Source: Hormiphora californensis (lineage: Eukaryota > Animalia > Ctenophora). Taken from it: 64,000 nt of DNA. Within the stretch, counting starts at the first letter, position 1. Each line of letters starts with the position of its first letter. The notes beneath the pieces were generated by a model. That model searched no databases and had not been told where the DNA came from. It saw only the letters and a program-made list of their open reading frames with translations. The translations under genes were made by a program, and so were the position numbers. This document shows positions 13,290 to 61,527 of the stretch, piece by piece. The stretch is from positions 3,472,001 to 3,536,000 of the forward strand of contig CM035356.1 in assembly GCA_020137815.1 (NCBI GenBank). Direction: 5' to 3'.

Positions 13290-14274
13290 GGCCAGAGGGG
13301 GGGGGTCCGAGGGTCAAAAAATGCACTTTTCTGAGGTTTAAATATGTGATGTAACTCGGAGGTAGGAAAGTTTTGGAGAGGGTAGCTGCGCACCAAGTGT
13401 ATCAGGAGACCCTGTTTTTTGAGGTTAACTTTTCGCCCAAAATGAATGTAAACCTCAAAAAAGCTTGTATTTATGTCACCTACACAGATGAAAATGGTAC
13501 CAATCGATAGATCTTATCAAGGAGACCAAGTGTTCAAAGTTTCAGAGCTCTAAGTCATATAGTTGTTCAGATATTTGAGGTTAACATATCTCCCAAAAAA
13601 CAAGCTTTTGTTGGATAAGTTCAGGTCCACAATTTCACTTTATGCTCCACTTCCTGAAGAGACGGCTAGGACCTGGGCCTTGAAACTTGGCAGTTATGAT
13701 CCTGAGATGGTGAACTAAAAATCTGGTGTAGCGATTTTTGATTTAGGCCCTAGTTCCTGAAATATTGAGGTTAACATTTTAAAAAGCTTGATTTTTGAAA
13801 CGTTAACCTCAATATTTCAGGAACTAGGGCCTAAATCAAAAATCGCTACACCAGATTTTTAGTTCACCATCTCAGGATCATAATTGCCAAGTTTCAAGGC
13901 ACAGGTCCTAGCCGTCTCTTCAGGAAGTGGAGCATAAAGTGAAAAAAATGTTCTGAAATATTCAAAAAAAGGTTGTTTTTTGGGAGATATGTTAACCTCA
14001 AATATCTGAACAACTATATGGCTTAGAGGTCTGAAACTTTAACCACTTGGTCTCCTTGATAAGATCTATCGATTGGTACCATTTTCATCTATGTAAGTGA
14101 CATAAATACACGCTTTTTTGAGGTTTACATTCATTTTGGGCGAAAAGTTAACCTCAATTTTCTCATTAACGGTGCGCGCTAAAACGATTCCAACTATTTC
14201 ATCTGGTCCGGCTCTTCGAGCCGGACCAAACCCCGAAAGTGACTTTTTAGACCCCTCGACCCCCCCCTCTGGCC
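13290..14274. mobile_element. Foldback non-autonomous transposon, TTAA TSD with GG termini (Kolobok-like)
   Basis: TTAA|GGCCAGAGGGGG...CCCCCTCTGGCC|TTAA; internal near-perfect palindrome of ~370-bp arms centred near 13790-13800. Confidence 0.85.
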
Positions 14275-16424: not shown

Positions 16425-19400
16425 TCAAAATGCAGACCTCGGCCTCACGCCATTATTACTAAAGTCCACCAATCCAAGATGAAAGCACTCCCTGATACTC
16501 TCCTCCTCCCAATTCAACTGGTTGTGTGAGAATGTTAGTGATCGGAGAGAGGGTAGTTGCTGTGTAACGTATTCCGGCATTTCGGATAGGTAATTGTGGT
16601 CGAGGTGAAGTGCCTCCAGGTTTCTCATTACCACCACCTGTTCCGGAATGTCCGAGATAAGGTTGTAGACCAAAGAGATACTTTTCAGCTTAGGAAGCTC
16701 CGTTAGAATCAGCGGGAATTTGTCTAGGTTGTTGTTCCCTAACCGTATCTCCTCTAACCGGGATAACTTTGCGAGTGTCAGCTCATTTAAACTGGTTATC
16801 CGGTTGTGATCGAGGTTGAGGTGCCTCAAGTTAGCGAAACCTCTCCAGCCCCTTAATTCCATCCACACCCTCCAGCTCACACTTGGTAACCGCCAGATAC
16901 TGCAACACAAGTTTACAGGTTATCATCCGGAGATCCACGATACCATTCCTCAACACTACCCCACTTATGTGAAGGTTTGTTAGGTTTCTTAGCGCCCAGA
17001 TGTGCTCCAAATCCCGTGGAGACATGTCTAGGAGCAGGAGGTACTTGGTTTGCTGTTCTATGTCCGAGATGACTGAGAGGCTGATAGTGTGGTCGGTACA
17101 TGACTCCAGTTCGTTGATAATTTCCTCATAGGTCCACTGGGAGATGTCTTGTCTATTGATTCCAATTATCGTGTCACCGCACTGAAAATATTGGAACAGT
17201 GGTTGCCATGGTTACAGACATACAATGGTCATAGAAATTGTTCATAGCAATCAGGGACATGATCTTTTACAATTTAACCGTAATAGAATCCTCACACAGG
17301 ACGTCTCTAACCTTTTTGTACCATATAAGTACCACTGGGTCATATATGACCCAATTTTTGAAATCGCTATAGCTCAGTCAATTTTTAATATTTTTTGATG
17401 CGGCTTTTTTCTTGCAGTTCTAGTTGGTCTTCTTCTAAAGTGTTTAAAATTATAGAAAATTCGTAGGAGGCGTTTAGAAATGGCATCAAAAGTTAAAAAA
17501 TGACCAAAATGAACATCATTTGGACCCAATTATCTAAGCCTTAACATCAATGATTGCGCATTAAACTTGGATTTTTAGGTAGAGAAATGTCTAAACTATG
17601 ATTTAGGCTTTAGTTTGGGCTCAAAAGTTAATCCTGAAGCTGAGAAATCAGTCTTTAGTGCAATGGGTCATATATGGCCTGTGGTCCTCAAAGGGTTAAC
17701 CGAATTAGAATTAGAATTATATGTATGGATGTTTTCTTCTAGTTTTAATTTTGTGGTTGTAGGCAACGCATGGATGATGCCTCAAATCAAGAATTGATTT
17801 GAGAAAATTGACTTTTTAAAAACCAGCAAATGAAATAATGACAGCTTGAAAAATCATGTCCCACGTGGCACGTACACTTCATCGATGGTGGCCATCAAAT
17901 CTAAGTCTGGCATATTTTAAAGAGTTCAAGGAGCTGCCTAAAGATACTAGGCAAATTATAGGCAATGAATCACTTCAGGCTCGCTTACATGCCTGTCCTT
18001 CCATCTGAAAGCTGTCTCGCCAATTTATTGGAAGTATGACAGAGAGGTTGATTCAAGTATTTAACTACTGGTTCATAAAGGTAGCTTTATATTTGCCCTA
18101 ATGGAGTTGGCGTATTATATGACAACTTTTTGACATGCCTCCCTCTTGATTCAAGAGGGGGGAATGTCAAAAATTTGTCATATAATTCAAGTTGAATGAT
18201 GGATTCTTCATTCATTCTTCTTACGCACAAGTTACAGGGGACGCTCCCTGATGTCAGGGGGACGCTCCCTGATATCAGGGCACGGCGCGTTCCTGCATGC
18301 CCGGCCATCATGTGCAGATGGTTTTGTGGGAACCATGTGACATTGCTGCGCGTCACGTAAATTGAATGGAAAGTAGTACTCACGCGCACCGTCAGCACTC
18401 ACTTGCTTGCCGACCTTGGGAACTGCCGAGCTTGGGAACTGATGCCTGGGAATCTCAAACTGGTGGCCTAACTCGGCATACCATTTATATTACTGCAATC
18501 TAATTACTGCAATCTTTCTCAATCTGCACTGAGAAACTCTTGCTCATAGTTATTTCCTAGTTTAGCTGCACTATTCCTTAATCCTTATGCTCCATGGTCG
18601 GTTGGTAATATTACTGTCTCTATTAACCAATGTCATGAATATACACCACGTGATTTATCCCAAACCGATCTTATTGCTGCTGGTAATTCCTGATATTATT
18701 TGAACCAAAGCATAATATGTGAAAGAAGCCTGAAATATCTTAGCCCACTTCTATAACACCTGTGGTAATCTTTGCTAAGTAAGGGGATGGTAATCTTGGT
18801 AGGCTAAAAGAAGGAACTTTAGTGCAGCTGCTAGCCGTAACTGTCTATTTTTGGCAAAACCCTTAAAAGGAGTAAAATCTCAGGGAGGAAGAACGAGACC
18901 CCCGAAACCGAGACGGGAAGAAAAAGTTACGGGGGCCCTTTGGGGGGGCCCCAATGGGGACGGCGCTTCCTGAACCCCGGGAAATTTTGGGAGGGTTTTG
19001 GGGGAAAAAACCCGGGGGAAAAAAAATTTAAAAGGAAAATTTATTTCCCCCGGGTCCCCCGTTTTGCCACCTTAACCCGGGGGACCGGGGTAAAATTTTC
19101 AAATCATTTTAAAAACATTATTCTTCCAAAAAAGGGGAAACCTCTTATAAAAACCCCTTTTTCCGGGGCCCCCCCCCAAAATTTCGCTTTTAATTTTTTT
19201 TCCCCCATTTAAAAACCCACTTTTTTAAAAAAATTTTTTTTGGCCCAAAAATTTGCTTTAAAAAAATTTAAAAAAAGGGCCCCCATCTTAATTTTTAAAA
19301 AGGGGTTGGGGGAAGGGTTTGTGGGGAAAAGGGGCTTTATTGCAGTGGGGGTTTTTTTTCCATTGGGATAAAATCACACAAAAAAAAAATTTTTTCCCCA

Positions 19401-22400
19401 AAAAAAGGGAAAAAAACCCCCGAAACGGGCCCAAGGGCAAACAAAAAAAGAAAACCTGGGGAAAAAAAAACCCCCCCAAGGAAAACCCCAAAGAAACAAA
19501 ACCAGGGAAAAACCAAGAGACGAGAGGCCTTGAACCCGGAACCAAGAAGACCAGAGGTTTTTGAAAACCGGCAGAAAAAGCCCGAAAGTGAAAATGGGGG
19601 AAAACGGGCCCCAGAGAGAGCAACACTTTCCGACCAGAAAGGGGCTAAATTTAACCCCCAACGGGGACCTCCCAAGGGGAACCCCTACCCGTCCCCCGGC
19701 GGGCCCTATGCCCCACCCAACCCTTTCAGCAAGGAAAGGAAGGGAAAGGAAGGAATGCAAAAGAGGGGGAAAAAGCAGAAAACCCCCCCAACCGCGCCCG
19801 GAGAAGGAGCCTAGAAAAACCCCAGGAAAGGAAGAACCGAACCAACCAAGGAAACCCGAAAAGCGAAACCGGAAGATATTCTGGAACTCAACCCCAAACC
19901 CCAGCCCAGGACGACGGAAAAGCCAAAGCCACAGAAACCACGGAACCGACCCCCCCAAAGGCAAAAGAAAAGAAACGGGAAAAACAACCGAAGCGTTTGG
20001 GGGACCCCGGGGAAGAGCCAGAGGGAAAAGAGGGGGGAAAAGGGAAGGGGGGAAGAGAAGCCCGGGAGAGGGGAAGAAAGGGGGGGGAGAGAAAAAAGGG
20101 AAAGGGGGGAAAAGGAGAGGGAGGAGAAAAAGAAGAGGAGAGAGAGGAAAGAGAAAAGAAAAAGAGAGGAGAACGGGGTGAAAGAAAAGGAGGGAGGAAG
20201 AGAGGGGAAGGGTGGTTAGAAGGAGAGAAAAAAGGGAAGAGTATATTCCATTCCTATTCTGAAAAACCAAAAATTAATATAGTTGTGATTTTTTCCCGAT
20301 TCTTTAGAAGAACCCCGTGAAACAGAGGGGAATAATAAAAACTTTGTCCCTTAGATCCATACTATATTAAAATAACAAAAACCCAAGACGTTTTTTTTTA
20401 TGCCCCATCTCCCGGCCCCTTTTTGTCCTAAAACAAATCTCTCATATTTGACAGACCTGTATTGTATAATAATATTATATCGACCTGGAGTTTCTATAGG
20501 GTCTCCAGTTTTGTAGCCTAAGCTTGAGGAATCGCTATTATATAGCTACATGTACACAAGAATTGACCACTGTTGTACTTTCCATAGAAGTGATAATACG
20601 TACCTTACTTTTGAGTAACAGGTAACTCAACAATACCTTACGGTATGGACTATCGACCCTACTTTATCTCTCTTCTGATTGTCTTGTGCTTTACACTAGG
20701 TACCTTTACACTATAGGTACCTTTACACTGTACCTTTACAGTTTACACTAGTTACCTTTATGCCAGCATTTTCCAGAGGTCCCTCGTCCACAAGGTCAGC
20801 TATGGTCACACTCCGAACTGAGCACCCACCTCCTCCATGCACAAACGTCTCTGATATAGGAGTGGCTTTTTAATTTGGGGAAAAATTGGATTGGAAACCT
20901 AAACTATAGTATAGGTTCTGTGACGTTCAAGATAGTGGTTTATTTTCAAAATTTAAATTAGGAAAATTAGTGATATCGGTTATGGACCATGGTTTCATCG
21001 CAACTTCACAGTTTTGATTTATGTTGCAATGTATTGCGGTTAACATAAAGAGAAATGTCACAAAAGAAAATTTCACATTCACGGCGGCTGTTTTTTGTTA
21101 TATAATTTGACAGTTGCTTTTTAAGTAACGTGATCTTTTAGAAGATAAGATGGAAGCATTTTCGCTAAAAGAGAGAGAAAGATAAAAAGAGCGAGAGAGA
21201 GAGAGAAAAGAACGACGGTTTGATTGATTAGAAAGGTTCAGAAGCTGAAAGTTCAATATCAAATCTGATCAATGTATGGATGGCAATTCTCATTGGTAAA
21301 ATTAGAATCTAATCTTAGTTAGAGAAGTGTAAAAGGTGTTGTACTGATGGTGAATGATTTTCCGAGTGATTTGACCAGGACAAGAGTTACGATATTACGT
21401 CAGTTCTAATAGAACTTCTATCTCATAATTTTTTCCCTGCCCGGGTGAATGCCCGAAGGGCATTCACCCGGGATGATCTTTTTAGCACGCACGTGCTAAA
21501 AAGATCATTCAGGGTTTAGAAATCAGCAGATCGTGGGGGTTAACTAAATGTCTGTCCGTCTGTCCACCGTTACACATAGTAACAAAGTCTGCTCCTTCAT
21601 AAATCTTTCAACTCACACTTTGCTAATGCAACAAAGGAAATGATTAACACGGATTGTGGCGTGCAATTACTCACTCGTAACACTTCCTACTTTCACCTGA
21701 AATCACTTTGGATACCCTACAGCCGTAGTAGCAAGCCTTCACATAATGATTGCAAGTGACTGGAGTTAAGATGAGCGAGGGTAAAGTTGAAGCACTTTGT
21801 AACCAACCAGGGTCTTCTTATCAACTGCCTTGGTTATCATAGCAACTGGCTTGGTTACCATAGCAACTGCTTTGATTACCATAGCAACCACCCTAGATAC
21901 CATAGCAACTAACATTCTCTTTGAGTGCAAAATTCATCGGGAAATCTAGTTTTGAAGCTAAGTCATCAATTTTACACCCATTTGTGGCAGGGAACACCGC
22001 ATTATGAATACATAATACAATAATTCTTGTTACACCAAACATAATTCGTTTACGGGGCCCGGATGAGACGCCCGTACCAGTCGCCCGTACATTTGCTTTG
22101 CGCATTACGTTTCACCACACTTTCACCACAACGAAACACATGCGCGTGACACGCATGTACCTTATATTTTGTGGTGAAAGTGCGATGAAACGTAATGCGC
22201 AAAGCAAATGTACGGGCGACTGGTACGGGCGATCTATACGGGCGATCTATTCGAGCCCCCGTAATCCCCCGTGTCAAGCACACCATTGTTCAAAAAATGA
22301 TGGTTGAAAAACGTCACGGTTCTCTACCCCTCCCTACATTTTCAAACTTATGCAAATATTATTATTGCAGCTTTCTCTCGGTATTCATATTCCTACATTA

Positions 22401-27921: not shown

Positions 27922-29071
27922 TACTAAGGATCCCCGTCGATGGCAATGAGCTGGCTGATCACAAGCATTTTGTATTATGAGGTTCTTATCTAACTATTTT
28001 CAATTAAATTAAATTGAACGCGTTTATTTTTGCACAGGAAAAACTTCCCACAATATTTTGATTTTTTGGTTACTTCAGGAGGGATCCATAGGTCGGTCGA
28101 CGGTCGTATAGACCTATTCGTGTGAATTGAGTGTCCGGTTGCAAGTTGCTTCCATAAGTATAAGCCAGGAGGAAAGAATCGATGCAGACGGGTTAATTGT
28201 CTCTCGTCGCATATATCTCATTTGGTGACTGGAGTAAAATGATTCAAAATTAAATATGCAACTTTTCTACGCTTCGGAACATTATCCGTGAAATTAGAAA
28301 TGGTCATTATTATCTTCAGAAAATTGTGCGCTCTTCCTCGCCGTTGTGATAAATAATTCAGCTTGGTCGGATAATTTCATGTGTTTCCGACTCATCTCAA
28401 CTGAACGCAAATTGGATGAGTTATATCAATCATCATCTAACATGTTTCAATTTTACGATTATCATCTCTCTTTGGTATTGGATTCACAAATCAAAACATC
28501 TCCTTAGCCCCATGTTCTTCAATCTCTGTCTGAACGTTAGTTGTATAAATCCTCCAACCCAAATTAATCAATCTACCTATACGGCTGCAGATGTTGGTGT
28601 GTATGGATGTATTCCTTGAATAGCAAACGTTTAACTTTGCACACATTATATTTGCTTGAATAAATGATTATGAAAATGCAACCCGAAGTCCGAACACGAT
28701 CAGTTAGCCAATATCATTTTTGCTTAAATGAATTTTTTTGTGGTAACCGATTTGATTATATTTTGAGGTTGAAGATATACTGAGCAGATATGCAGTCTTC
28801 TTAGATTTGAAAGTAAGGCCGACTAACTTTACGAGTTCGGTAATGAAAATATCACCCCATATTGGTAATTGGTTGTAGAGTTTTCTCGAAGGGGCTCTAT
28901 TTCTTTACACTATGCAGCAGCTTGTAACCCATTAGGTCGTTAGTGGTTACGGATTGAATGTTACACAGTACGTGGGTATTCCTTTCAACGTGTGAGAGTA
29001 CACATATATCTGCTATAAGTCAGTTCATCTTCTGCTTTGTTTCAGTGTTTGTGTATCTTTTCATCCATTAA

Positions 29072-30461
29072 GGGTACGCTAACCAAAAATTTTTTTCGAG
29101 TGCAGGGAAATCTCTCACCGTAGGGTTGTAGGCCATACCAAGGAGACCTCAAATATGCAATTTTAGCCCTTAAGTCGAATTCATATTTTTGCTACAGCTG
29201 TTTAAAAAATGTCCTGAAAATACGTTTTTGGCATCTCAAAAATTTTTTTTCAAAGATAGGAGCATGAAAATTTGGGGATTTGAAGAAGACATGAAGGTGA
29301 ATAACCACAAAAAATTTTTTTGCAATCCGAGCTGATTTCCGGTCCTGAGATGGATTTCTTTTTTTCCACTTTAACGCCCTATTTGGCAAAGTTCCGAAAA
29401 CATGTGAAAGCTGTAAATTGGTGAAAAGTTGCGTCTAACGATTATATAAGTGGCCATAAATTTTGGGCGTGTCCTTATTTGAGATAAGCTGTACGGAGTT
29501 TTTTTTGTGAAAGCCGTCATTTCAGAAATAAATAAATTCCCTGTATCTCAAAAACGGCTGATCGTAGAGACCTGAGACTATGCTTAAACGATTCAGAAGG
29601 TCCGATTTTGGGGGGGTCTTCTGAGAGACATTTTGCTCCTACTTCAACCGTTTTTGCTGTAATTGCGAAAAACAATTACCCATCTTCGCCATCGTGGATT
29701 TTTTTTGATTTTGTTTTTCATGATTATAGGGACCCATATGGACCAAATAGTGAAGGAATTAGCTTGTTAAACATTTTTCCATAGTTTCGGTCCTTTCTTA
29801 GCTAAAATTCCCTAATTACAGGATATTGGAGTTTAGCTTTTGCCCTTTTCATAGAATTTGTTTTTCGCAATTACAGCAAAAACGGTTGAAGTAGGAGCAA
29901 AATGTCTCTCAGAAGACCCCCCCAAAATCGGACCTTCTGAATCGTTTAAGCATAGTCTCAGGTCTCTACGATCAGCCGTTTTTGAGATACAGGGAATTTA
30001 TTTATTTCTGAAATGACGGCTTTTACAAAAAAAATTCTGTACAGCTTATCTCAAATAAGGACATGCCCAAAATTTATGGCCACTTAGATAATCGTTAGAC
30101 GCAACTTTTCACCAATTTACAGCTTTCACATGTTTTCGGAACTTTGCCAAATAGGGCGTTAAAGTGGAAAAAAAGAAATCCATCTCAGGACCGGAAATCA
30201 GCTCGGATTGCAAAAAAAATTTTTGTGGTTATTCACCTTCATGTCCTCTTCAAATCCCCAAATTTTCATGCTCCTATCTTTGAAAAAAAATTTTTGAGAT
30301 GCCAAAAACTTATTTTCAGTTCATTTTTCAAGCAGCTGTAGCAAAAATATGAATTCGACTTGAGAGCTCAAATTGCATATTTGAGGTCTCCTTGGCATGG
30401 CCTACAACCCTACGGTGAGAGATTTCCCTGCACTCGAAAAAAATTTTTGGTTAGCGTACCC
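29072..30461. mobile_element. 1.39-kb foldback element with ~600-bp TIRs, TTAA TSD, GG termini (Kolobok-like, non-autonomous)
   Basis: TTAA|GGGTACGCTAACC...GGTTAGCGTACCC|TTAA; mirrored ORFs 29192-29389(-) and 30144-30341(+) confirm arm symmetry. Confidence 0.9.
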
Positions 30462-30586
30462 TTAAGAGTATCAAGCTCGTATTTATACCACATTCCGTTC
30501 TTTGTCTTCGTTCATTCTTCATATTGTGTGTTTTGAACTGTGACGAATGTAATGAGCTGCTTTCTCCGCCATGTCTAATATATGAA

Positions 30587-45679: not shown

Positions 45680-47112
45680 GGTGACCTACAACTATGGCTC
45701 ATGCAACTATGGCTCATAAAATCTATGAGCCATAGATGCATGCAACTATGGCTCATAGATTTTATGAGCCATAGATGCATACAACTATGGCTCATAGAAA
45801 TGTGATCTGATTAGGTTCTATGAGCCAAAGCTAGTGAGAGTGAGAGGGACGTGAGTGACACGTGAGTGACACGTGAGTGATACGTGAGTGACACGTGAGT
45901 GACATGTGAGTGACACGTGAGTTTTCGAATCATGTAATATTAAATGAGCACAAATGTAAACGATTTACATAATGATAATGATAAATCTAATGTTACATAA
46001 TTAAAATTACACTATCAGTTCATCTTGGATATAATGGTAAAAGGGGTCCTTCTTTGGACAGTTCATAGAGCATTTCACGTGAATCAGCAGCTCCTTAACA
46101 CGATGTTTATTCCAATCTATGATCGGATAGGTACTAAACAGCCGCCTTGCATTATCACTATCAGGATCCACAGTAAAAAACTCTCCAACAGGTCTGATTT
46201 TCGAGAAAGTAGTATAGGTAGGATGTTCCCAGAAATTGCCTGGCTAAAGTTTCTGATCTTTCACACTCTTCCAAAACCTCCCGGTACTCGTTGAACAATG
46301 TAGTGTTTTTCGTGACGTCGATAACAATTATAGCTAGTGAATCTACTAACAAATTCTAATGAGCGGGATGGATATGTGACAGTGTCACATATCCACCCCC
46401 CTCACTGACACGATTCTGGGATGCGCCATTAGCAGAGTGAAACGATACGAGATACGAAACTTATGATTCGGGGGAGCTCATTAGCAGTGTGTGACGATAG
46501 GTATATGGAACATGATTCGGGGAAGCTTATTAGGAGTGTTAGACGATATGAGAAACGATTCGGAGAATGTTTTATCACTCTTTCTATCTATCTCTATCTC
46601 TATCTCTATCTCTTTTTGTCAATTATCTTGGACTTGAGAACTAGATGAGGTGCCTACCATTATACTATAATGCGAGCTGACGCTACACACTTGGTGAGTT
46701 TAGTGCCCTTATTTTTGGTAATAAGAGCCTATCGGCTCGCCTCATTGTTTTTAGGAGGATATGTTGTTTTTAATGGAATGCGTTCGGTTTTTTTCGAGTC
46801 TTGCCAAACAGACCAAATTCAAACCATTCCATCTAAAACAACAACATATCCCCCTAAAAACAACGGGGCTGAGCCGACATCCAGATAAAAAAGGAAAAGG
46901 AGTATGGACAAAAATAAGGGCACCAAAGTTTGTAGCTTCATCGCATTAGTATGAGTAGGTATCTCATCTGGTTCTCAAGATAATTGACAAAAAGAAATAG
47001 AGATAGATAAAAAGAGCGATAAAACATTCTCCGAATCGTGTCTCATATCGTTAGCACTCCTAATAAGCTTCCCGATCATGTTCCAATACCGTATCTCTAA
47101 AGTAATGAGCTC
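45680..47112. mobile_element. Composite repeat block: CAACTATGGCTCAT inverted arrays, (GACACGTGAGT)n, and a foldback 46474-47112 with nested hairpin 46733-46876
   Basis: Direct inspection of inverted arms (e.g. TTCGGAGAATGTTTTATC / GATAAAACATTCTCCGAA). Confidence 0.65.
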
Positions 47113-53300: not shown

Positions 53301-54546
53301 ATTTATCTAAACGGTTATACGATTGCTACGATTATGCAATCTAATATCGGCTCTTAAAGTTGAATTCCTGCATTTCCAAACGCGTTTGTAGATTTCATTC
53401 CAGAAATATGTTCTTTTATATGCTACACTCATGAGCTCTTATTGCACATATCACATCTGTCTCATATAAGACATGTTTTATTAACCCTCTTGCAGATCTT
53501 GTAGGATCTCCAAAATTCGCATGATCTCTTTTTGACTCACGACCTGCATCGTTAACACTGTTGACAGAGTGACATGTTTGGTCGCTGACAAATTCTTCTT
53601 GACACCAACTGTCTGCTATAAGTTCTAATTCTAGGCTTGTTCAGTTATAGTCAACCATTCTTTTTTAAACATCATTCTTTTTGAAATATGAATTTTACGG
53701 ATTAGCTTCAGCTTAGTAATAGTTGTTAGCACCAGCTGTTAAATTCATCGTCGGTAGGGTGCGAGATGTAATGGATCGCTTAGAATGTCAGTTTGTGTGG
53801 TACTGTTTGTCATAGAATAAAGCTGTGTGTAATGAGTTAGGAATTAAATAATCTGTTTAATGTTATCGTTGCACTTTTACACTAATTGTTCTGCGTTTAT
53901 AGTAACTTTCAAAGGAGAGTACCGTCCTCCATGAAACTCTGGAATGATACCACATACAGTGTTTTAGCTTGTAACTTTTTCTACTTTTCTAGTCCACGAC
54001 CTCTCGACTGAGGATGAGTTTTCTTTCAAGTATAGCTGGATACCGCTTCTCCTTCTTCTATTCCTTCCCCTTCCCTTTCCCCTATCTCTATGTGTCTAAC
54101 AAGGCGCCGTGTGTTTAACCCGCTTAGACAGCTTGTATTCGATTTATAGAAATTCGAGTTATACTCAAACTCTGATGTTTACCTTTAGATTTTCTATTCT
54201 GGTAGTTTTATTTTGATTTGATTTCTGTGTTTTGTGCAGATCCTATGGATACACCATAAACAAGTGCTATAAACTTGTTACACCGCTGCTGTAGCGGATT
54301 AAATATATCCAGCAAGTAATGACCAGCTTCCCCCTCTATATTAATCTATACAATAGCATTAGATGCAGCTATACATATTCATTCCAAGAGGATACCCTCC
54401 CTCGTGCCGTACACACATCACTCACTTTAAGTTTAGGTTGTTCGAAGCTGTAGAAGATATTCAGATCCTCTGCTGCAACAAGGTCATCCCCTTGGCAGTG
54501 AAGCTGCCACCCACGTCGGGGGTGGCGCGACTTTGTCACACGCTAC

Positions 54547-56585
54547 GTAGGGTAGCGACTGGCTATTTGGCCGGGCTTGGTCGATTCGGAGGGTCCGATT
54601 TTGGGGGGGTCTTCTGGGAGACATTTTGCTCCTACTCCAACCGTTTTTGCTGTAATTGGGCTGTAATTGCGAAAAAGGTATCAGCAAGTAAGGGGGAAAT
54701 CAGCACGAAGCAGGCTACTGGAATAGAGTTGTTCCCCCTTTTCATAGAACTGGTTTTTTGCAATTACAGCAAAAGCGGTTGGAGTGGGAGCGGGGTGTCT
54801 CTCGGGGGCCCCCCCGGGATCGGGCCTTCTGAGTCGATTGAGCTTGGTCGCGGGTCTCTTCGGTCATCCGTTTTTGGGATGCAGGGAATTTCCCTCTTTT
54901 TCGGGGAGACGGGTTTCGCGGAGCGGGCTCTGTGCGCCGCGTCTTTGGCGGAGGGGTTCTAGAATTTTTGGGCCGCATTGGTGGTCGTTTGGAGCGGCTG
55001 TTTCCGGATTTTCGTCTCTAGTGAGGCGTGGGAGCGTTCTCGGCCGGCGTGTCGGGGACACGGGGGAGTGAACCGTTCTCATGGCCGGAAGGGAGCTCCG
55101 TTTCGGAGATCCTTCTTTGGGCTTGTTCGCCTTTATATTTTCTTCGGATTTCGGGAGTTTGGTGTTTCTGTCTCGGGGAAGGTGGTCCTGGGGTCGGAGG
55201 TTCCGACGGGGTTTGGGAGGGCGCCGCTTTGAGAGTGGGCTGTGACGGGGGTGTGGGTTCGACTTTGGGGCTGAAATTGCGTATTTGGGGTCCATTTTGT
55301 GTGGCCTGAGCCCTGGTGGGGTCATTTGGTTGGGCGCTCGGTGATGAGGGGCGCCGGGTGTACCCTTAAAGGGAGGTTTCCCCTGTGACCTGGTATGGCA
55401 CCAGCTCCCCAAGTCTCCTTGGGCCGAAGCAGTTGGCAACATACCAGCCACACCACCCAGGACGGGGAACGGGAGCCCCATGGCACCCACCCCTTACTGG
55501 CTAGTGCTTCGCACTAGCCAGCGTCCTCCCAGAAGAAGAAGAAGAAGAAGGCTATTTGAAACACTTTTTCACTTTTTTCCTTTGTGTGTCCACAAATCAA
55601 GTTGAACCGAAAATTTTTTCACCCTATGTTACTGAGACAGTCCCAGGGTAGTTTTTGGAGTGGTTTCATTTTGTCTTCCGGGGTCAGGGTCACGTGATAC
55701 ATACCCAAATTTGGTGTTTCAATTAGCCCACCTCAGTCTGCTGATTTGAAACACCCGTATCTCCCTCAATTTGTCCACGAAACCGAAATTTTTGACCTGA
55801 AATAGTTAGAAAGGGATTGTAAAGAGCCATTCCATGTCTGAATTCTGAATTTTTTTGCATGTGCTTGGTGCAGTGAATGTTTCCAAAAAGTGTTTCAAAT
55901 AGCCAGGAAAACAGTTTTGCCCCAAATTCGGCCAATTTTAGGCGGAAATGGCTAAATTCATAATTCATATCCTCCCTATACTCAAAATGAACATCAAAAT
56001 TTTCCGACAGCGGATTTGGAGAAAAGTGTTTCAAATAGCCCTCCGCAGTGTTTCAAATTACCAGAATCGCTTGCCCTGTAATATTATTGCCGGTTTAGAC
56101 CTGCTAAATTGGTGTTGCTTGTTTAAACAAGGTACCAGAGGGCACGCACAGACTGACCATACTTGACCATGACCACATTTGATCAAGATTTTGACCAAGT
56201 CGCACAGACATACCAAATTTGATCATTTGAACAAGCTTGGAGAGTAAAAACTGAAACTAATTCATAACATAGCGAAAACCACTGAACCCGACTAATTTCG
56301 ATACGCTGAATCACGTAAGCAACTTTTCCAGCCCCTCAGAGGTCGATAAAGTGCCGTAATTGAGTATAATTGGGTTATTAAGAATTAAGGCACTTTCTTG
56401 ACCTCTGAGGGATTGGAAAGGTTGTTTACGTGATTCAACGTATCAAAATTAGTCGGGTTCAGTGCTTAGACAAGCTAATACACATGTACGGGGCACTATC
56501 TTTCAAATAGCCAGTCCACCTGTTTCAAATAGCCAGACACTGTTTCAAATTGGCAGACGTTTCAAATAGCCAGTCACTACCCTAC
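54547..56585. mobile_element. Host MITE (TIR GTAGGGTAG[C/T]GACTGGCTATTTGAAAC) interrupted in its left TIR by the 54570-55549 insertion; contains a nested CACTG hairpin element 56280-56464
   Basis: Left TIR 54547-54569 resumes at 55550 (GGCTATTTGAAAC); right TIR TTTCAAATAGCCAGTCACTACCCTAC ends at 56585; TTTCAAATAGCC subterminal repeats. Confidence 0.8.
54570..55549 (+). mobile_element. Retrotransposed, A->G-hypermutated Kolobok-like foldback copy plus non-LTR-type 3' tail
   Basis: Aligns to 29072-30461 with pervasive A->G; 5'-truncated; ends in an 11-bp stem-loop and (AGA)6; GGCTATTTG duplicated at 54561-54569 and 55550-55558. Confidence 0.85.
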
Positions 56586-58498
56586 CTATAGGGGATTGCG
56601 TGACGTGCCCAAGTCATCCCCTCGTACGAATACCCTTCGGGTTTATCTCTCATCCAGTTCAGCACTGAGTTAAGTTGTTCCTCCTAATAAGTAATAACCT
56701 ACCAAGTTACCCCTTGTAGTTTGTCCGCTCTCGCAAGACGTCGGGATAACCATCGCCGAGTGGCATGCCATGGCATTGGGATCGTTTCATAGTTTTACGA
56801 AAAGCTTTCGTTGACACGGAGAGGTCACGAAATATAGAAAAAAATGCCGAAATGGGATAACTGCACATTAACCACATGACTCGACGTTGGGTAACCACTG
56901 TAACATAAAGTTACAGTGCCATTATTTCCTAATGGTTGCCCTCCTCCAACGAATGTTCAATGTATGCACCCTTGCCTATGCTACACGCCCCCCTGATTAA
57001 TTAACTACAAGTAATTATAATGTTTGTGTATGCAGCCCCTCTTTTAATTACGCAGCTCGAGCCTGGCTGATTGCTCACGTAATTCTAGAAATAAACTTGT
57101 TTATTATATCGAGTCGCCCCTCTCTCTCCCTTGATCACTTAGCCAGCTGTTCAAGGGACAGTTCCCAGTGCAAACAACTTCTTCCAGGAACTGTAATCAA
57201 TCAATGAAGCTACTCTCATGCGACTTGACTAGCTACTACATATATGATTTTAGATACTATTCCAGCTTTGAGTTATAAATAGTTGAACTACATAACCATG
57301 TCTAGCCAAGTCTCTAGGTGAAAGGAAAAATGTATTTAATGGATGCTAGGTTAACTTGAAGGGGTGTGAGGTAGGGGAAGGGAAGGGAACTGATTTCTAG
57401 AATAGATGTATCTGTCATATGAAACTGAAAGATCTAGAGAGATAGGTCAGTAAATGAGCTAGTGGGGGTGTCTGATTAATCCGTGTGAGGCCCTTGCACG
57501 TCTTCAACTGCGTTCCCTCTCATCAGTCATCACATATAATACGCGACGAGTGTGTGTGTGAGTCCGAGAACTGTAAAACAAGTTTATTGAGTTTCTCAAT
57601 TGACAGTGAGTAGTGACACACTGTGTGTCATGTTCATGACAATGAAGAAGTTCCAATGAGTAGGTAGTATTATACAGCTTGTTGAGTAAGGGGTGGAGGA
57701 GAGGGTCTCTCACTCAACAGCTGCAGTAGTCAGCAATCCAGCGCAGCTACTCATTAATTTGTTGCTGTATTTTTTTGGCAAGTCTTGCCTTATTTTCTTT
57801 ATTTTTGATCTCGAAAATCTTTAGCTTCAATTGCTTGCTTAATTTGATTTTTTCTAACCCAATCGGATTTCAAGTGTAGCACTAGCAGATGAGATTGAGA
57901 TCGTACTATACGAGAAACTCACTTCGTAAGATCCGTCATGACTTGTTGAGTAAGGGGTGAGAGGGTTAGGGTTAGTCTTGGTGACATAGACACCTGGCGC
58001 GACCTAGATTGAGCTCACTATGTCACCAAGGGTTAGTCATGACGGTCATTTAGGATTGCAATCTCCTTATATTCTCGTAATCAGGTCCCGTCTCGCCTTG
58101 TAGCTCTTACAGCGCCAAATTATGTAGAATTATGAAGAATATGTATGTCAGACTCTGACTCAGAGCATGACAGGTGGGGCAATCTTAGAAAAAAAAAAGA
58201 GGATCGTATACGGATCTCTTTTTTATCATGAAATTAATCAACAAAATTCTTGTGACTCGAGTTCTTCAGAATCCATTCTTCTGTCTCGTCTGGAGAACGC
58301 GGCACTAAATGTCATTAACTTGATCTTGATATGCATTATGCATTGCATCTTAAATTGCTCCTTTTAAAATGATTTCTGCAATTATCCTTTATGTCTCCTC
58401 ACCCTCTACCAATTGCGGTACTTTTGTAAAATTTTATAATTCGTCGTCGCATTGTAAATGTAAATTGTAAAATATAGCTAACAATTTCTTCCCTTACA

Positions 58499-59628
58499 GT
58501 TTCATGATGCCAATCCCACCACTTGGCTCTCCATCTACCAATACACCCGAGATAATGGGGGTACTAGGAGAAAACCACTGTGGTATCCATCATCATCCTG
58601 ATGATACTTGGTCCTCTATCTCAACACGCTGATCCTGTACATGTTCCTGAAAAATAAACACTATCGCCTACCCAGCCGACTGCAACTTGTTCACTCTCGG
58701 CTCTGGATGATCCTGGGGACAGCTCTCCTAGGTGGAGCCGATTGTCATCAGTATGTTCTATCACGGTGATAACTTTGCGGCCTCACCCATCCTCTGTCGA
58801 CTCTTCTCAAATCTTCTCCACATCTTCCCCTGGGGATCTATCATCAGTTTAATGATCCTCAGTTTCACACGAGTCATCATCGTACTCTTCCCCCTGGCTC
58901 ACAAGATCTGGATTACCCGGCAGAGAGTTGTGTATGTGATCATTATAAAGTACGTGTTTATCGCGGTCTTCCTGACCATCTCCAACCCCCTCTGGAGGAT
59001 ACTCTACCAGCCCCAACTTCAGAGCTGTTTTGTCAGTTATATTATGCCGGGTGACAAGCTCGAGGTACCACATACGAACGTTATGCCCTTCATCGTACTA
59101 TTTGGTAGTGTAACGATCATAGCGTTATCTTCCGTTGTCCTAGGGCAGTTCCTGAGGTTACAGTGCACAGCTGATAAACGGTTGAGGAATAGGAGCAGGC
59201 TGAGTAGCATCGCACGAGAACTGTTTTTACTTGTGGTTGTGTTTGTGGTGACGACCATTCTGGTACCTTTCCTCGCTCTAAAACAGTATCTCGACATTGA
59301 GCTAGACCCTGCTGATACGGAGATTTTAGCACAAGTTGCCAAAGTTCTGTTCTACCTGGCCCCCGTAGCAAACCCTCTCATATACGCCCTGAGGAAGGGA
59401 GAGTATCGTATCAGTGGTGCATCTAAAAGGTCAGGCAGCAAAATGAAGCAGTACTTTGTGAAAAATGTCAGTATCCAGAGCCGATCTGATAGTAACGGGA
59501 CACCGAGACGAAGTGTAAAGCTGTGTGAAGTGAGGGTCAGGGGGCTTCATACTGCAGTAGCTGCTGCAGCAGCAGGCGCGAACGGAGTAGACTTGTGTAT
59601 GGTAGCAGCAAACAGAGCTGCAACATGA
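58499..59628 (+). CDS. Rhodopsin-class GPCR 3 (large exon; several indels in the TM1-TM2 region = assembly errors or pseudogene)
   Basis: ORF 58732-59628 has LCR..SIISLMILSFTR..FPL, TM4, ECL2 Cys, TM5, TM6, ANPLIYALR; TM1/TM2 are seen in shifted frames upstream (VVSIIILMILG, LNTLILYMF). Confidence 0.8.
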
Positions 59629-59649
59629 TATTATCTTTGTGTGTGTGTA

Positions 59650-61118
59650 CACGGTGCACCAGAAGGATCGTCAACCCAAAGTTGAGCCCGCAAAACAAAC
59701 TTTTGTTGGGGGTGACCCAGGAGGCCTTCCTGAACATCCCCACGGTGAGAAAAGTATATGTTATGGGGGAAAATTTTTGTCAAAATCGAAAAAACTGGTT
59801 TTTGGTCCAAATTTGTGCATAACTTACTTGACTGCCGTTTGATGAAATATCTGATTGACATAAAATAAGTAGACCAGACCTATTTTTGCACGAGAAATCG
59901 ATTGCCGGTGGAGAGAAATCTCTAAAATGACCGGAAAATTGTCAAATATGGGAATTTTGTCATTTTTTTGAGGTTTTTGGCCCTTTAACTATTGAAAACG
60001 TTGAGATAGGAAGTTGGCAATAGCGCCAATCGTTAAAATGGTCATTTTTCTACGGGATCCCAAAATTTCATGTATATCCGATTCATTGTTAGATTTTGGC
60101 AAACTATTGAGATGTGCTTACTGAAAAAAGGATAACTTGATTTTCTCGTTTTTTGCGATTTTTTAACTTTTGACAGAATTCTGATTGAAATGGCCAATCA
60201 CGGCCATGCTAAAGTTGTTTATGGGACAATTTCCGACCAAAATCCAAGATTTCATGCAAATCCAATTACAGATCATTGATTTATAGAAAGTTGAAATAGG
60301 CAAAAAAAGGCCAATTGTTACCATGAAAACAAAAATACACATTTTTTCTTGTCAATTTCCATCAACAACTGGTACCCTACCTATTTTTTGCACGTAGAAT
60401 CGATTGCCGGTGAAGTGGATCCTCTTAAATGATTGGAAAGCGGTCGGTAAAAAATTGGCCTTTTTTGCCTATTTCAACTTTCTATAAATCAATGATCTGT
60501 CATTGGATTTGCATGAAATCTTGGATTTTGGTCGAAAATTGTCCCATAAACAACTTTAGCATGGCCCTGATTGGCCATTTCAATCGGAATTCTTTCAAAA
60601 GTTAAAAAATCGCAAAAAACGAGAAAATCAAGTTATCCTTTTTTCAGTAAGCACATCTCAATAGTTTGCCAAAATCTAACAATGAATCGGATATACATGA
60701 AATTTTGGGATCCCGTAGAAAAATGACCATTTTAACGATTGGCGCTATTGCCAACTTCCTATCTCAACGTTTCAATGGTTAAAGGGCCAAAAACCTCAAA
60801 AAAAATGACAAAATTCCCATATTTGACAATTTTCCGGTCATTTTAGAGATTTCTCTCCACCGGCAATCGATTTCTCGTGCAAAAATAGGTCTGGTCTACT
60901 TATTTTATGTCAATCAGATATTTCATCAAACGGCAGTCAAGTAAGTTATGCACAAATTTGGACCAAAAACCAGTTTTTTCGATTTTGACAAAAATTTTCC
61001 CCCATAACATATACTTTTCTCACCGTGGGGATGTTCAGGAAGGCCTCCTGGGTCACCCCCAACAAAAGTTTGTTTTGCGGGCTCAACTTTGGGTTGACGA
61101 TCCTTCTGGTGCACCGTG
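59650..61118. mobile_element. 1.47-kb foldback element, CAC termini, 4-bp TGTA TSD (Chapaev/CMC-like, non-autonomous)
   Basis: TGTA|CACGGTGCACCAGAAGG ... CCTTCTGGTGCACCGTG|TGTA; ~670-bp near-perfect arms (mirrored ORFs 59631-/60907+). Confidence 0.88.
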
Positions 61119-61527
61119 TGTACTGTGTGTACTGTGTGTACTGAGATAATCTGCTTGACTTTGGACTATGGACTGGACATTGTCTGATAAGATCTTGGGT
61201 GAGAGTCCAGTTCTAAGTCTCTGATGAATGATGAAAAAAGTGTAGAAGTGTAGAAGTCCATGGACTTTTGTGAGAGTTTGTGACTAAGCTGGACAATTGT
61301 TTGTTGCAAGTTGCTTGTGAGCGTGTAATGGCTGGGCAATTAGACAAAGATTTGTGAATTTATTGGAAGAAATGCTGTTCCATTACATGTCAAATTTCTT
61401 CAGTTTGCCGTTTTAAGAACTCGTCTTTCCTTGGCAACCAGGAATCATATATTTGCACGTGCAAAATTGTTTCTTTCTCTACGATCCGATTTCTTCGACT
61501 CCTCGTCCCACGCGGCTGGCTGTAACT

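Follow-up and report, generated by a model that had tools for sequence, protein, structure and literature searches.

A 980-nt insert in the genome of the ctenophore Hormiphora californensis (Table 1) is best explained as the transcript of a fold-back transposon that was edited as a hairpin and then retroposed into DNA, a reading to which we give a probability of about 0.85 and in which we infer both an ADAR as the editing enzyme and a LINE reverse transcriptase (RT) as the copier. A-to-I editing is usually regarded as a change confined to RNA, and to our knowledge cut-and-paste fold-back transposons are thought never to pass through RNA; on this reading, the locus holds about 120 edits of a single molecule, fixed in DNA within a class II element. 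The same history had been proposed in the original prediction, made from the letters of the window (the whole stretch of 64,000 nucleotides analysed here). The proposal is supported: A in DNA reads, strand-symmetric change and an abundant G-rich subfamily, each of which would speak against it, were all looked for, and none was seen.

Table 1. Coordinates, in the window, of the insert and its parts, the host element and the fold-back used for comparison
Feature	Position	Strand	Remarks
Insert as a whole	54570–55549	+	980 nt; between 9-bp direct repeats
Target-site duplication, left copy	54561–54569	+	9 bp; within left TIR of host MITE
Residual left arm of Kolobok-type fold-back	54570–54658	+	89 nt; 5′-truncated
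Spacer/loop	54659–54760	+	102 nt; As kept (29% A); high-copy subfamily match
Full right arm	54761–55365	+	A>G at about 60% of As; terminal motif intact (YY end)
TTAA	55366–55369	+	Half of Kolobok-type target duplication; also in uninterrupted tail family
3′ end of high-copy SINE/LINE-like repeat	55370–55530	+	161 nt; structured; little edited
11-bp stem-loop in tail	55497–55521	+	
(AGA)6A simple-repeat tail	55531–55549	+	
Target-site duplication, right copy	55550–55558	+	9 bp
Host MITE	54550–56582	.	TA flanks; repeated subterminal motif; left TIR split by insert
Unedited fold-back, same family, other subfamily	29068–30465	.	Proxy parent for comparison

The predicted features, including the 9-bp repeats that split the TIR of a MITE, lie where they had been placed, and their assignment at the 3′ side needs amendment. 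The transposon part, said to run to 55368, has nearly that extent but truly ends with the TTAA, and the closing stem-loop and (AGA)6, although present, belong to a separate high-copy repeat distinct from the transposon. At the other side, truncation has reduced a left arm of about 600 nt to 89 nt, with contigs bridging the junction. The nesting extends over 54370–56627, where the host MITE lies close to a further repeat.

First, the copy carries a one-stranded excess of A>G changes. The intact fold-back with which it was compared has 608-bp arms that are 97% complementary, TTAA on both sides (29068/30462) and GG...CC ends, and the alignment was scored with all transitions treated alike. Over the whole local alignment, 127 of 236 As have become G, against 8 of 147 G>A, 31 of 244 T>C and 27 of 156 C>T. 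The right arm alone gives A>G 116/190, T>C 22/186, G>A 4/103 and C>T 22/123 (Fisher p about 3e-24), which confirms the pervasive plus-strand replacement of A by G, argues against strand-symmetric change and, with relatives that carry A, differs from the sense-strand G>A clusters that mark APOBEC activity. The changes are spread throughout this arm at 8–15 per 60 nt, and a count made by hand near the loop (some 20 A>G, about 5 other changes and no G>A) becomes 19, 7 and 0 in 54751–54870. We do not count the G at 54782 among the edits, because it pairs with a C common to about half of the family. A scan of the 64-kb window with a collapsed alphabet returned no second hyper-changed copy. The changed arm (54776–55365) has 51 CpG dinucleotides, compared with 15 in the reference arm, and the CpG-rich DNA that editing creates could attract methylation.

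The copy had been assigned to the family of the fold-back at 29068–30465, and rightly so, but it belongs to another subfamily. Changes other than A>G number 2 and 5 per 60-nt bin near the loop and 14–22 in the middle of the arm, and the spacer differs as well; the reference element is thus a proxy from a different subfamily, not the direct parent. The TTAA duplication (29068/30462, with the right side at 55366 in the copy) and the 5′-RR...YY-3′ termini with TIRs fit a Kolobok-type origin. These are the features given for non-autonomous Kolobok transposons in PMC9587614, whose host list, as far as given there, does not contain ctenophores; unlike a typical Kolobok, the insert likely moved via RNA. 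No transposase was seen alongside the Kolobok-type elements in the 64-kb window, pattern scans of viral, genome and metagenome contigs for the transposon core found no locus, and a search of Rfam gave 7 matches, all far under the gathering scores. No tRNA was found.

Second, the residual stem records the same bias without any external reference. Ordinary mutation yields G:T and A:C mismatches in a stem equally. Pairing of 54570–54658 with 54761–54848 gives 88 bp, comprising 65 Watson–Crick pairs, 23 G:T, 0 A:C and 0 other mismatches; an alternative placement of a one-base gap gives 24 G:T, of which 16 trace to the right arm and 8 to the left. As controls, eight further hairpins of the window together hold 39 G:T and 43 A:C (Fisher p 1e-6 against the copy). 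Since every mismatch in the copy's stem is G:T and the controls are balanced, G was gained on one and the same strand in the two arms, just as had been read from folding the copy on itself. In the left arm, G stands at 8 of the 19 inferred As, five of these within the first 11 nt. The loop was spared and the tail little edited: As are scarce in the right arm, at 58 of 590 letters, and commoner in the spacer (30 of 102; p 1e-6) and in the tail (32 of 161; p 0.001), so that the changes are restricted to the double-stranded regions, in both arms and on one strand, and As are retained in spacer and tail. Even within the stem, 0 of 10 As lying at most 14 bp from the loop are changed, compared with 24 of 39 further out (p 0.0006). 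The unedited 14 bp occupy 54761–54774 and 54645–54658, and are possibly a footprint of the enzyme's geometry or of an open stem end.

An additional expectation was that ADARs avoid an A preceded by G, for which the copy provides weak support. Across all columns of the comparison with the proxy parent, As after G are edited as often as the others (19/27 vs 69/99; p 1.0, and 0.82 by another comparison), and 18 contrasts on 5′-G depletion in filtered columns give p values from 0.04 to 0.75. In the copy's own stem, As after G are edited at 5 of 14 positions and other As at 19 of 35 (p 0.35); at least 15 bp from the loop the figures are 5/14 vs 19/25 (p 0.019), a cut-off that was picked after viewing the data. 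The direction of the effect agrees with the ADAR preference described in PMC9989829. The earlier argument that surviving As tend to follow G (38 of 57) is rejected, because many of those Gs are edits themselves.

Third, related copies in a second sample suggest that the window copy has had company. In the mid-arm region, run X5 of this sample yields a 573-nt contig with 69 differences from the window copy, at depth 120, and a 367-nt contig with 51 differences, at depth 71. The places of change in this run comprise 19 A>G and 3 T>C, and 54 G>A and 7 C>T (p about 1e-6 for both contrasts); runs X1 and X7 have no such long contigs and no A>G place. Among 40 of the 100 rows, six of the 19 A>G places are named, all six from the two long contigs, and CpG decay was discarded as their source, as five of the six have no preceding C in the window. 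Flanking contigs of the second sample differ from the window by about 3% (10/345 and 17/648), so the two long contigs are not simple alleles. The X5 contigs likely have edits that the window copy lacks and miss some that it has, which fits separate edited molecules, and single-copy relatives with A>G changes of their own indicate that the process likely recurs. At 95% likeness the second sample leaves 54840–55309 uncovered, which alone is no proof of absence. It further offers two weak hints that the host MITE itself is missing from some alleles: one joint leaps over 2168 nt, with 22 letters on one side, and one contig leaves the window's sequence at 54549.

Are these G-rich pieces independent products, or the offspring of one old edited or G-shifted founder that spread as DNA by means of a Kolobok transposase? 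The 573-nt contig departs from the window exactly at the TIR plus TTAA, as a transposase insertion would, and continues with 34 letters unlike the window's tail, pointing either to another donor or partner or to movement as DNA. With differences at no more than 69 of 537 places, it shares many Gs with the window copy, and the two long contigs agree with each other against the window at several states. Descent from a single founder is nevertheless improbable. The window copy has no left TIR, is flanked by a 9-bp duplication instead of TTAA and bears an added tail; the differences are strand-biased in both directions, unlike neutral drift; every G-rich piece is at single-copy depth; and an RNA-edited founder would still be needed to account for G:T pairs arising from both arms. 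Editing followed by retroposition, repeated in separate molecules, is the reading we prefer for the relatives as well, as they partly show by their different edit patterns. We lean, by a modest degree, towards the broader proposition that in comb jellies ADAR and a LINE RT constitute a recurring route by which fold-back transcripts become A-to-G hypermutated retrocopies that today vary from one individual to another.

In which form was the element deaminated? Beyond the stem that the present DNA can form, the edited right arm extends over another 517 nt without a partner, with 52 A vs 156 T there. As the changes run across all of this partnerless stretch, both arms were likely present at the time of editing and truncation came later. 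Editing before truncation is likely the simplest reading, the alternative partner being an antisense transcript of another copy. The same stretch bears on whether adenines were deaminated in DNA, either by an ADAR acting on a DNA/RNA hybrid or by another deaminase acting on an extruded DNA hairpin. ADARs do deaminate dA in DNA/RNA hybrids in vitro (PMC5389660), and a single-stranded DNA fold-back would likewise produce G:T from both arms. Yet the present DNA pairs over only 88 bp and the 517 nt beyond are equally changed; the DNA strand of a hybrid formed in transcription or in target-primed reverse transcription (TPRT) would presumably be the minus strand and yield plus-strand T>C; and none of the 8 intact hairpins in the window is biased, nor is there another case in the 64 kb. 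Deamination of DNA is accordingly rated as very unlikely, below descent from a single founder, and an edited RNA remains our preferred starting point.

Fourth, the context of the insert fits a retrocopy, with a target-site duplication, 5′ truncation, and a 3′ stem-loop and simple repeat that both belong to a high-copy family. None of 200 shuffled versions of the tail folds as well as the tail itself (z −4.67). In both samples the depth of its family exceeds that of a single copy by hundreds-fold or more, and it is high in organism B as well. Uninterrupted members of this family continue upstream (loose ends before 55363) and share a 7-nt overlap with the transposon end (55363–55369). Some tail-family contigs reach the same AGA repeat earlier, and others, from X5 and X7 (55381–55475), have internal back-jumps of 42 and 95 nt. 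The orientation of the tail makes plus the sense strand of the RNA, on which an edited RNA is expected to leave A>G; deamination of first-strand cDNA would presumably produce T>C instead. Stringent LINEs recognize a 3′ stem-loop (PMC4176376), and the zebrafish and eel L2 tails described there have, like the present one, a stem-loop followed by a short repeat, unlike which the repeat unit here is AGA. The duplication, tail and truncation fit TPRT by such a LINE. No second copy of the tail was found in the window, nor was its cognate LINE or the true parent found; the tail stem-loop pattern gave 0 hits in viral contigs, no family member emerged from collection scans, and five metagenome matches to the stem-loop were set aside as chance because they are only 19–23 nt long.

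The proposed sequence of events is as follows. One fold-back copy would have been transcribed with both arms and folded, whereupon about 60% of the right-arm As were probably deaminated. The edited transcript would then have been joined to the 3′ end of a retroelement, either because the donor transposon sat in the TTAA of the tail element or through an RT template switch at the 7-nt overlap, two routes of about equal odds. A LINE enzyme would recognize the attached stem-loop and (AGA)n tail, and TPRT, reading inosine as G, would have copied the tail, the right arm, the loop and 89 nt of the left arm before stopping. The 5′ end of the insert (54570–54580) falls in a cluster in which 5 of 5 As are changed. 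Inosine-rich RNA can be cleaved, and cleavage before reverse transcription could be an alternative to RT drop-off for the origin of this end. The product now sits in DNA between the 9-bp repeats, at single-copy depth. In human cells, editing of L1 RNA by ADAR1 was not detected according to PMC5224506, which we counted against our reading.

The edited RNA might instead have entered DNA through RNA-templated break repair or cDNA recombination, without TPRT by a LINE. No LINE partner was found, and the flanking 9-mer, identical in its two copies (9/9 bp), is also a motif that recurs in the host MITE; as it occurs there 5 more times on the minus strand, what looks like a target-site duplication could be the result of a small replacement. 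The stem-loop is followed, however, by a perfect repeat tail with which the 3′ end coincides exactly, and removing the insert together with one 9-bp repeat restores a left end that matches the MITE's right TIR. Break repair is, in our estimate, a shade less probable again than deamination of DNA, and TPRT is retained as the route.

Fifth, the changed bases are present in DNA and are derived. Runs X1 and X2 of sample S1, whose label as DNA is a guess, give even cover of the flanks and are perhaps the source of the assembly, so that they exclude a consensus error yet do not represent a second individual. Contigs at 54720–55346, 54738–55137 and 55108–55386, from the two runs, show 0 differences over 279–627 nt and carry G where A had been the outcome to look for; their depths of 47 and 140–155 are similar to those of the flanks and correspond to a single copy. 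The left junction is bridged by contigs in both runs (54461–54646 and 54461–54632). At the arm–tail junction a unique contig overlaps by just 17 letters, and the right duplication has no unique bridging contig, the tail being a repeat of high copy number. At the changed sites, the Kolobok-type family, which is high-copy and has arms of about 600 bp, carries A. At 80% likeness, relatives differ from the copy by 17 G>A and 0 A>G in X1, and by 14 and 0 in run X7 of organism B, and where family contigs run off at loose ends, the first five left-arm sites that changed in the copy read A. As high-copy relatives of two species carry A, the G in the copy is derived. Nor was an abundant G-rich subfamily seen, given the single-copy depth and a left arm in the same copy that keeps T opposite G. 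An assembly or long-read artefact, for which one might cite the possible origin of the assembly from X1 and X2 and a homopolymer-rich stretch of the window that looks like poor long-read consensus (18850–20300; 42% of letters in runs of at least 4, vs 9.6% in the window, and purine-only at its end), or a reversed polarity in which the family suffered G>A, is scarcely credible in the face of identical contigs from two runs, the A of relatives in two species and the T opposite G.

The window has other features of its own. Unrelated fold-back families lie at 59649–61119, 13419–14157 and 46496–47095, with arms of up to 674 bp and 96% likeness and no G:T bias; these long fold-backs are potential dsRNA substrates. 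The first begins 20 nt after a single-exon frame for a rhodopsin-family GPCR (58732–59628). A single-exon open reading frame at 384–1286 has its best named match in a TEX9-like protein of Bolinopsis microptera (62%, E 1e-99); no other named animal exceeds 45%, which points to a ctenophore host. At about 300 aa it is shorter than most named animal homologues.

Ctenophores are one of the earliest-branching animal lineages. If our reading is true, each such copy is a single-molecule record of RNA editing in the germline, and editing acts as a heritable mutagen. If the copies are independent, a genome scan could use DNA by itself to measure germline editing, the preferences of ADARs and the traffic from class II to class I. 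Hyper-editing pipelines run without matched DNA could be misled by such copies, and repeat annotation could mistake them for old or G-rich subfamilies.

Finally, how does the insert compare with known systems? In the open-access literature, subscription papers lying largely outside this scope, we found no description of genomic retrocopies of hyperedited hairpins. The passage of RNA edits to DNA has been put forward as a hypothesis (PMC12941027), and a review describes the role of ADARs in the sequence evolution of Alu and other retrotransposons as undetermined (PMC4982230). In chemistry and class of substrate, the case resembles the hyper-editing by ADARs that early-branching animals direct at dsRNA from repeats (PMC9989829, PMC5850803): ADAR1 and ADAR2 both occur in the ctenophore Mnemiopsis, where repeats are the main site of editing (PMC9989829), and in a coral, editing is reported to be highest in gamete bundles (PMC9989829, PMC5850803). 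The fixation of a burst on one molecule by retrotransposition, with strand-biased clusters, is shared with the APOBEC “DNA editing” of LTR retrotransposons (Knisbacher and Levanon, PMC4866542), and G>A editing fixed in the genome is also described for vertebrate LTR elements (PMC2873906). That process, as reported, is G>A by deamination of cDNA in vertebrates, whereas here the change is A>G, is limited to paired arms and lies in an invertebrate DNA transposon; in PMC4866542, DNA transposons and invertebrates served as negative controls, DNA transposons being given as free of a strand-biased signal. A further comparison is with the ADAR-type hypermutation of retroviruses, reported for Rous-associated virus, avian leukosis virus and bovine leukemia virus proviruses, in which clustered A>G changes enter DNA via RT and nearly 50% of the As in an inverted-repeat region were changed (PMC12925331, PMC8025556). 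Those retroviruses are exogenous, act in infected cells and use their own RT, whereas here the template is a class II element, mobilized in trans and found in an animal assembly; to such editing fixed by reverse transcription, recurrence between samples is likely the main addition.
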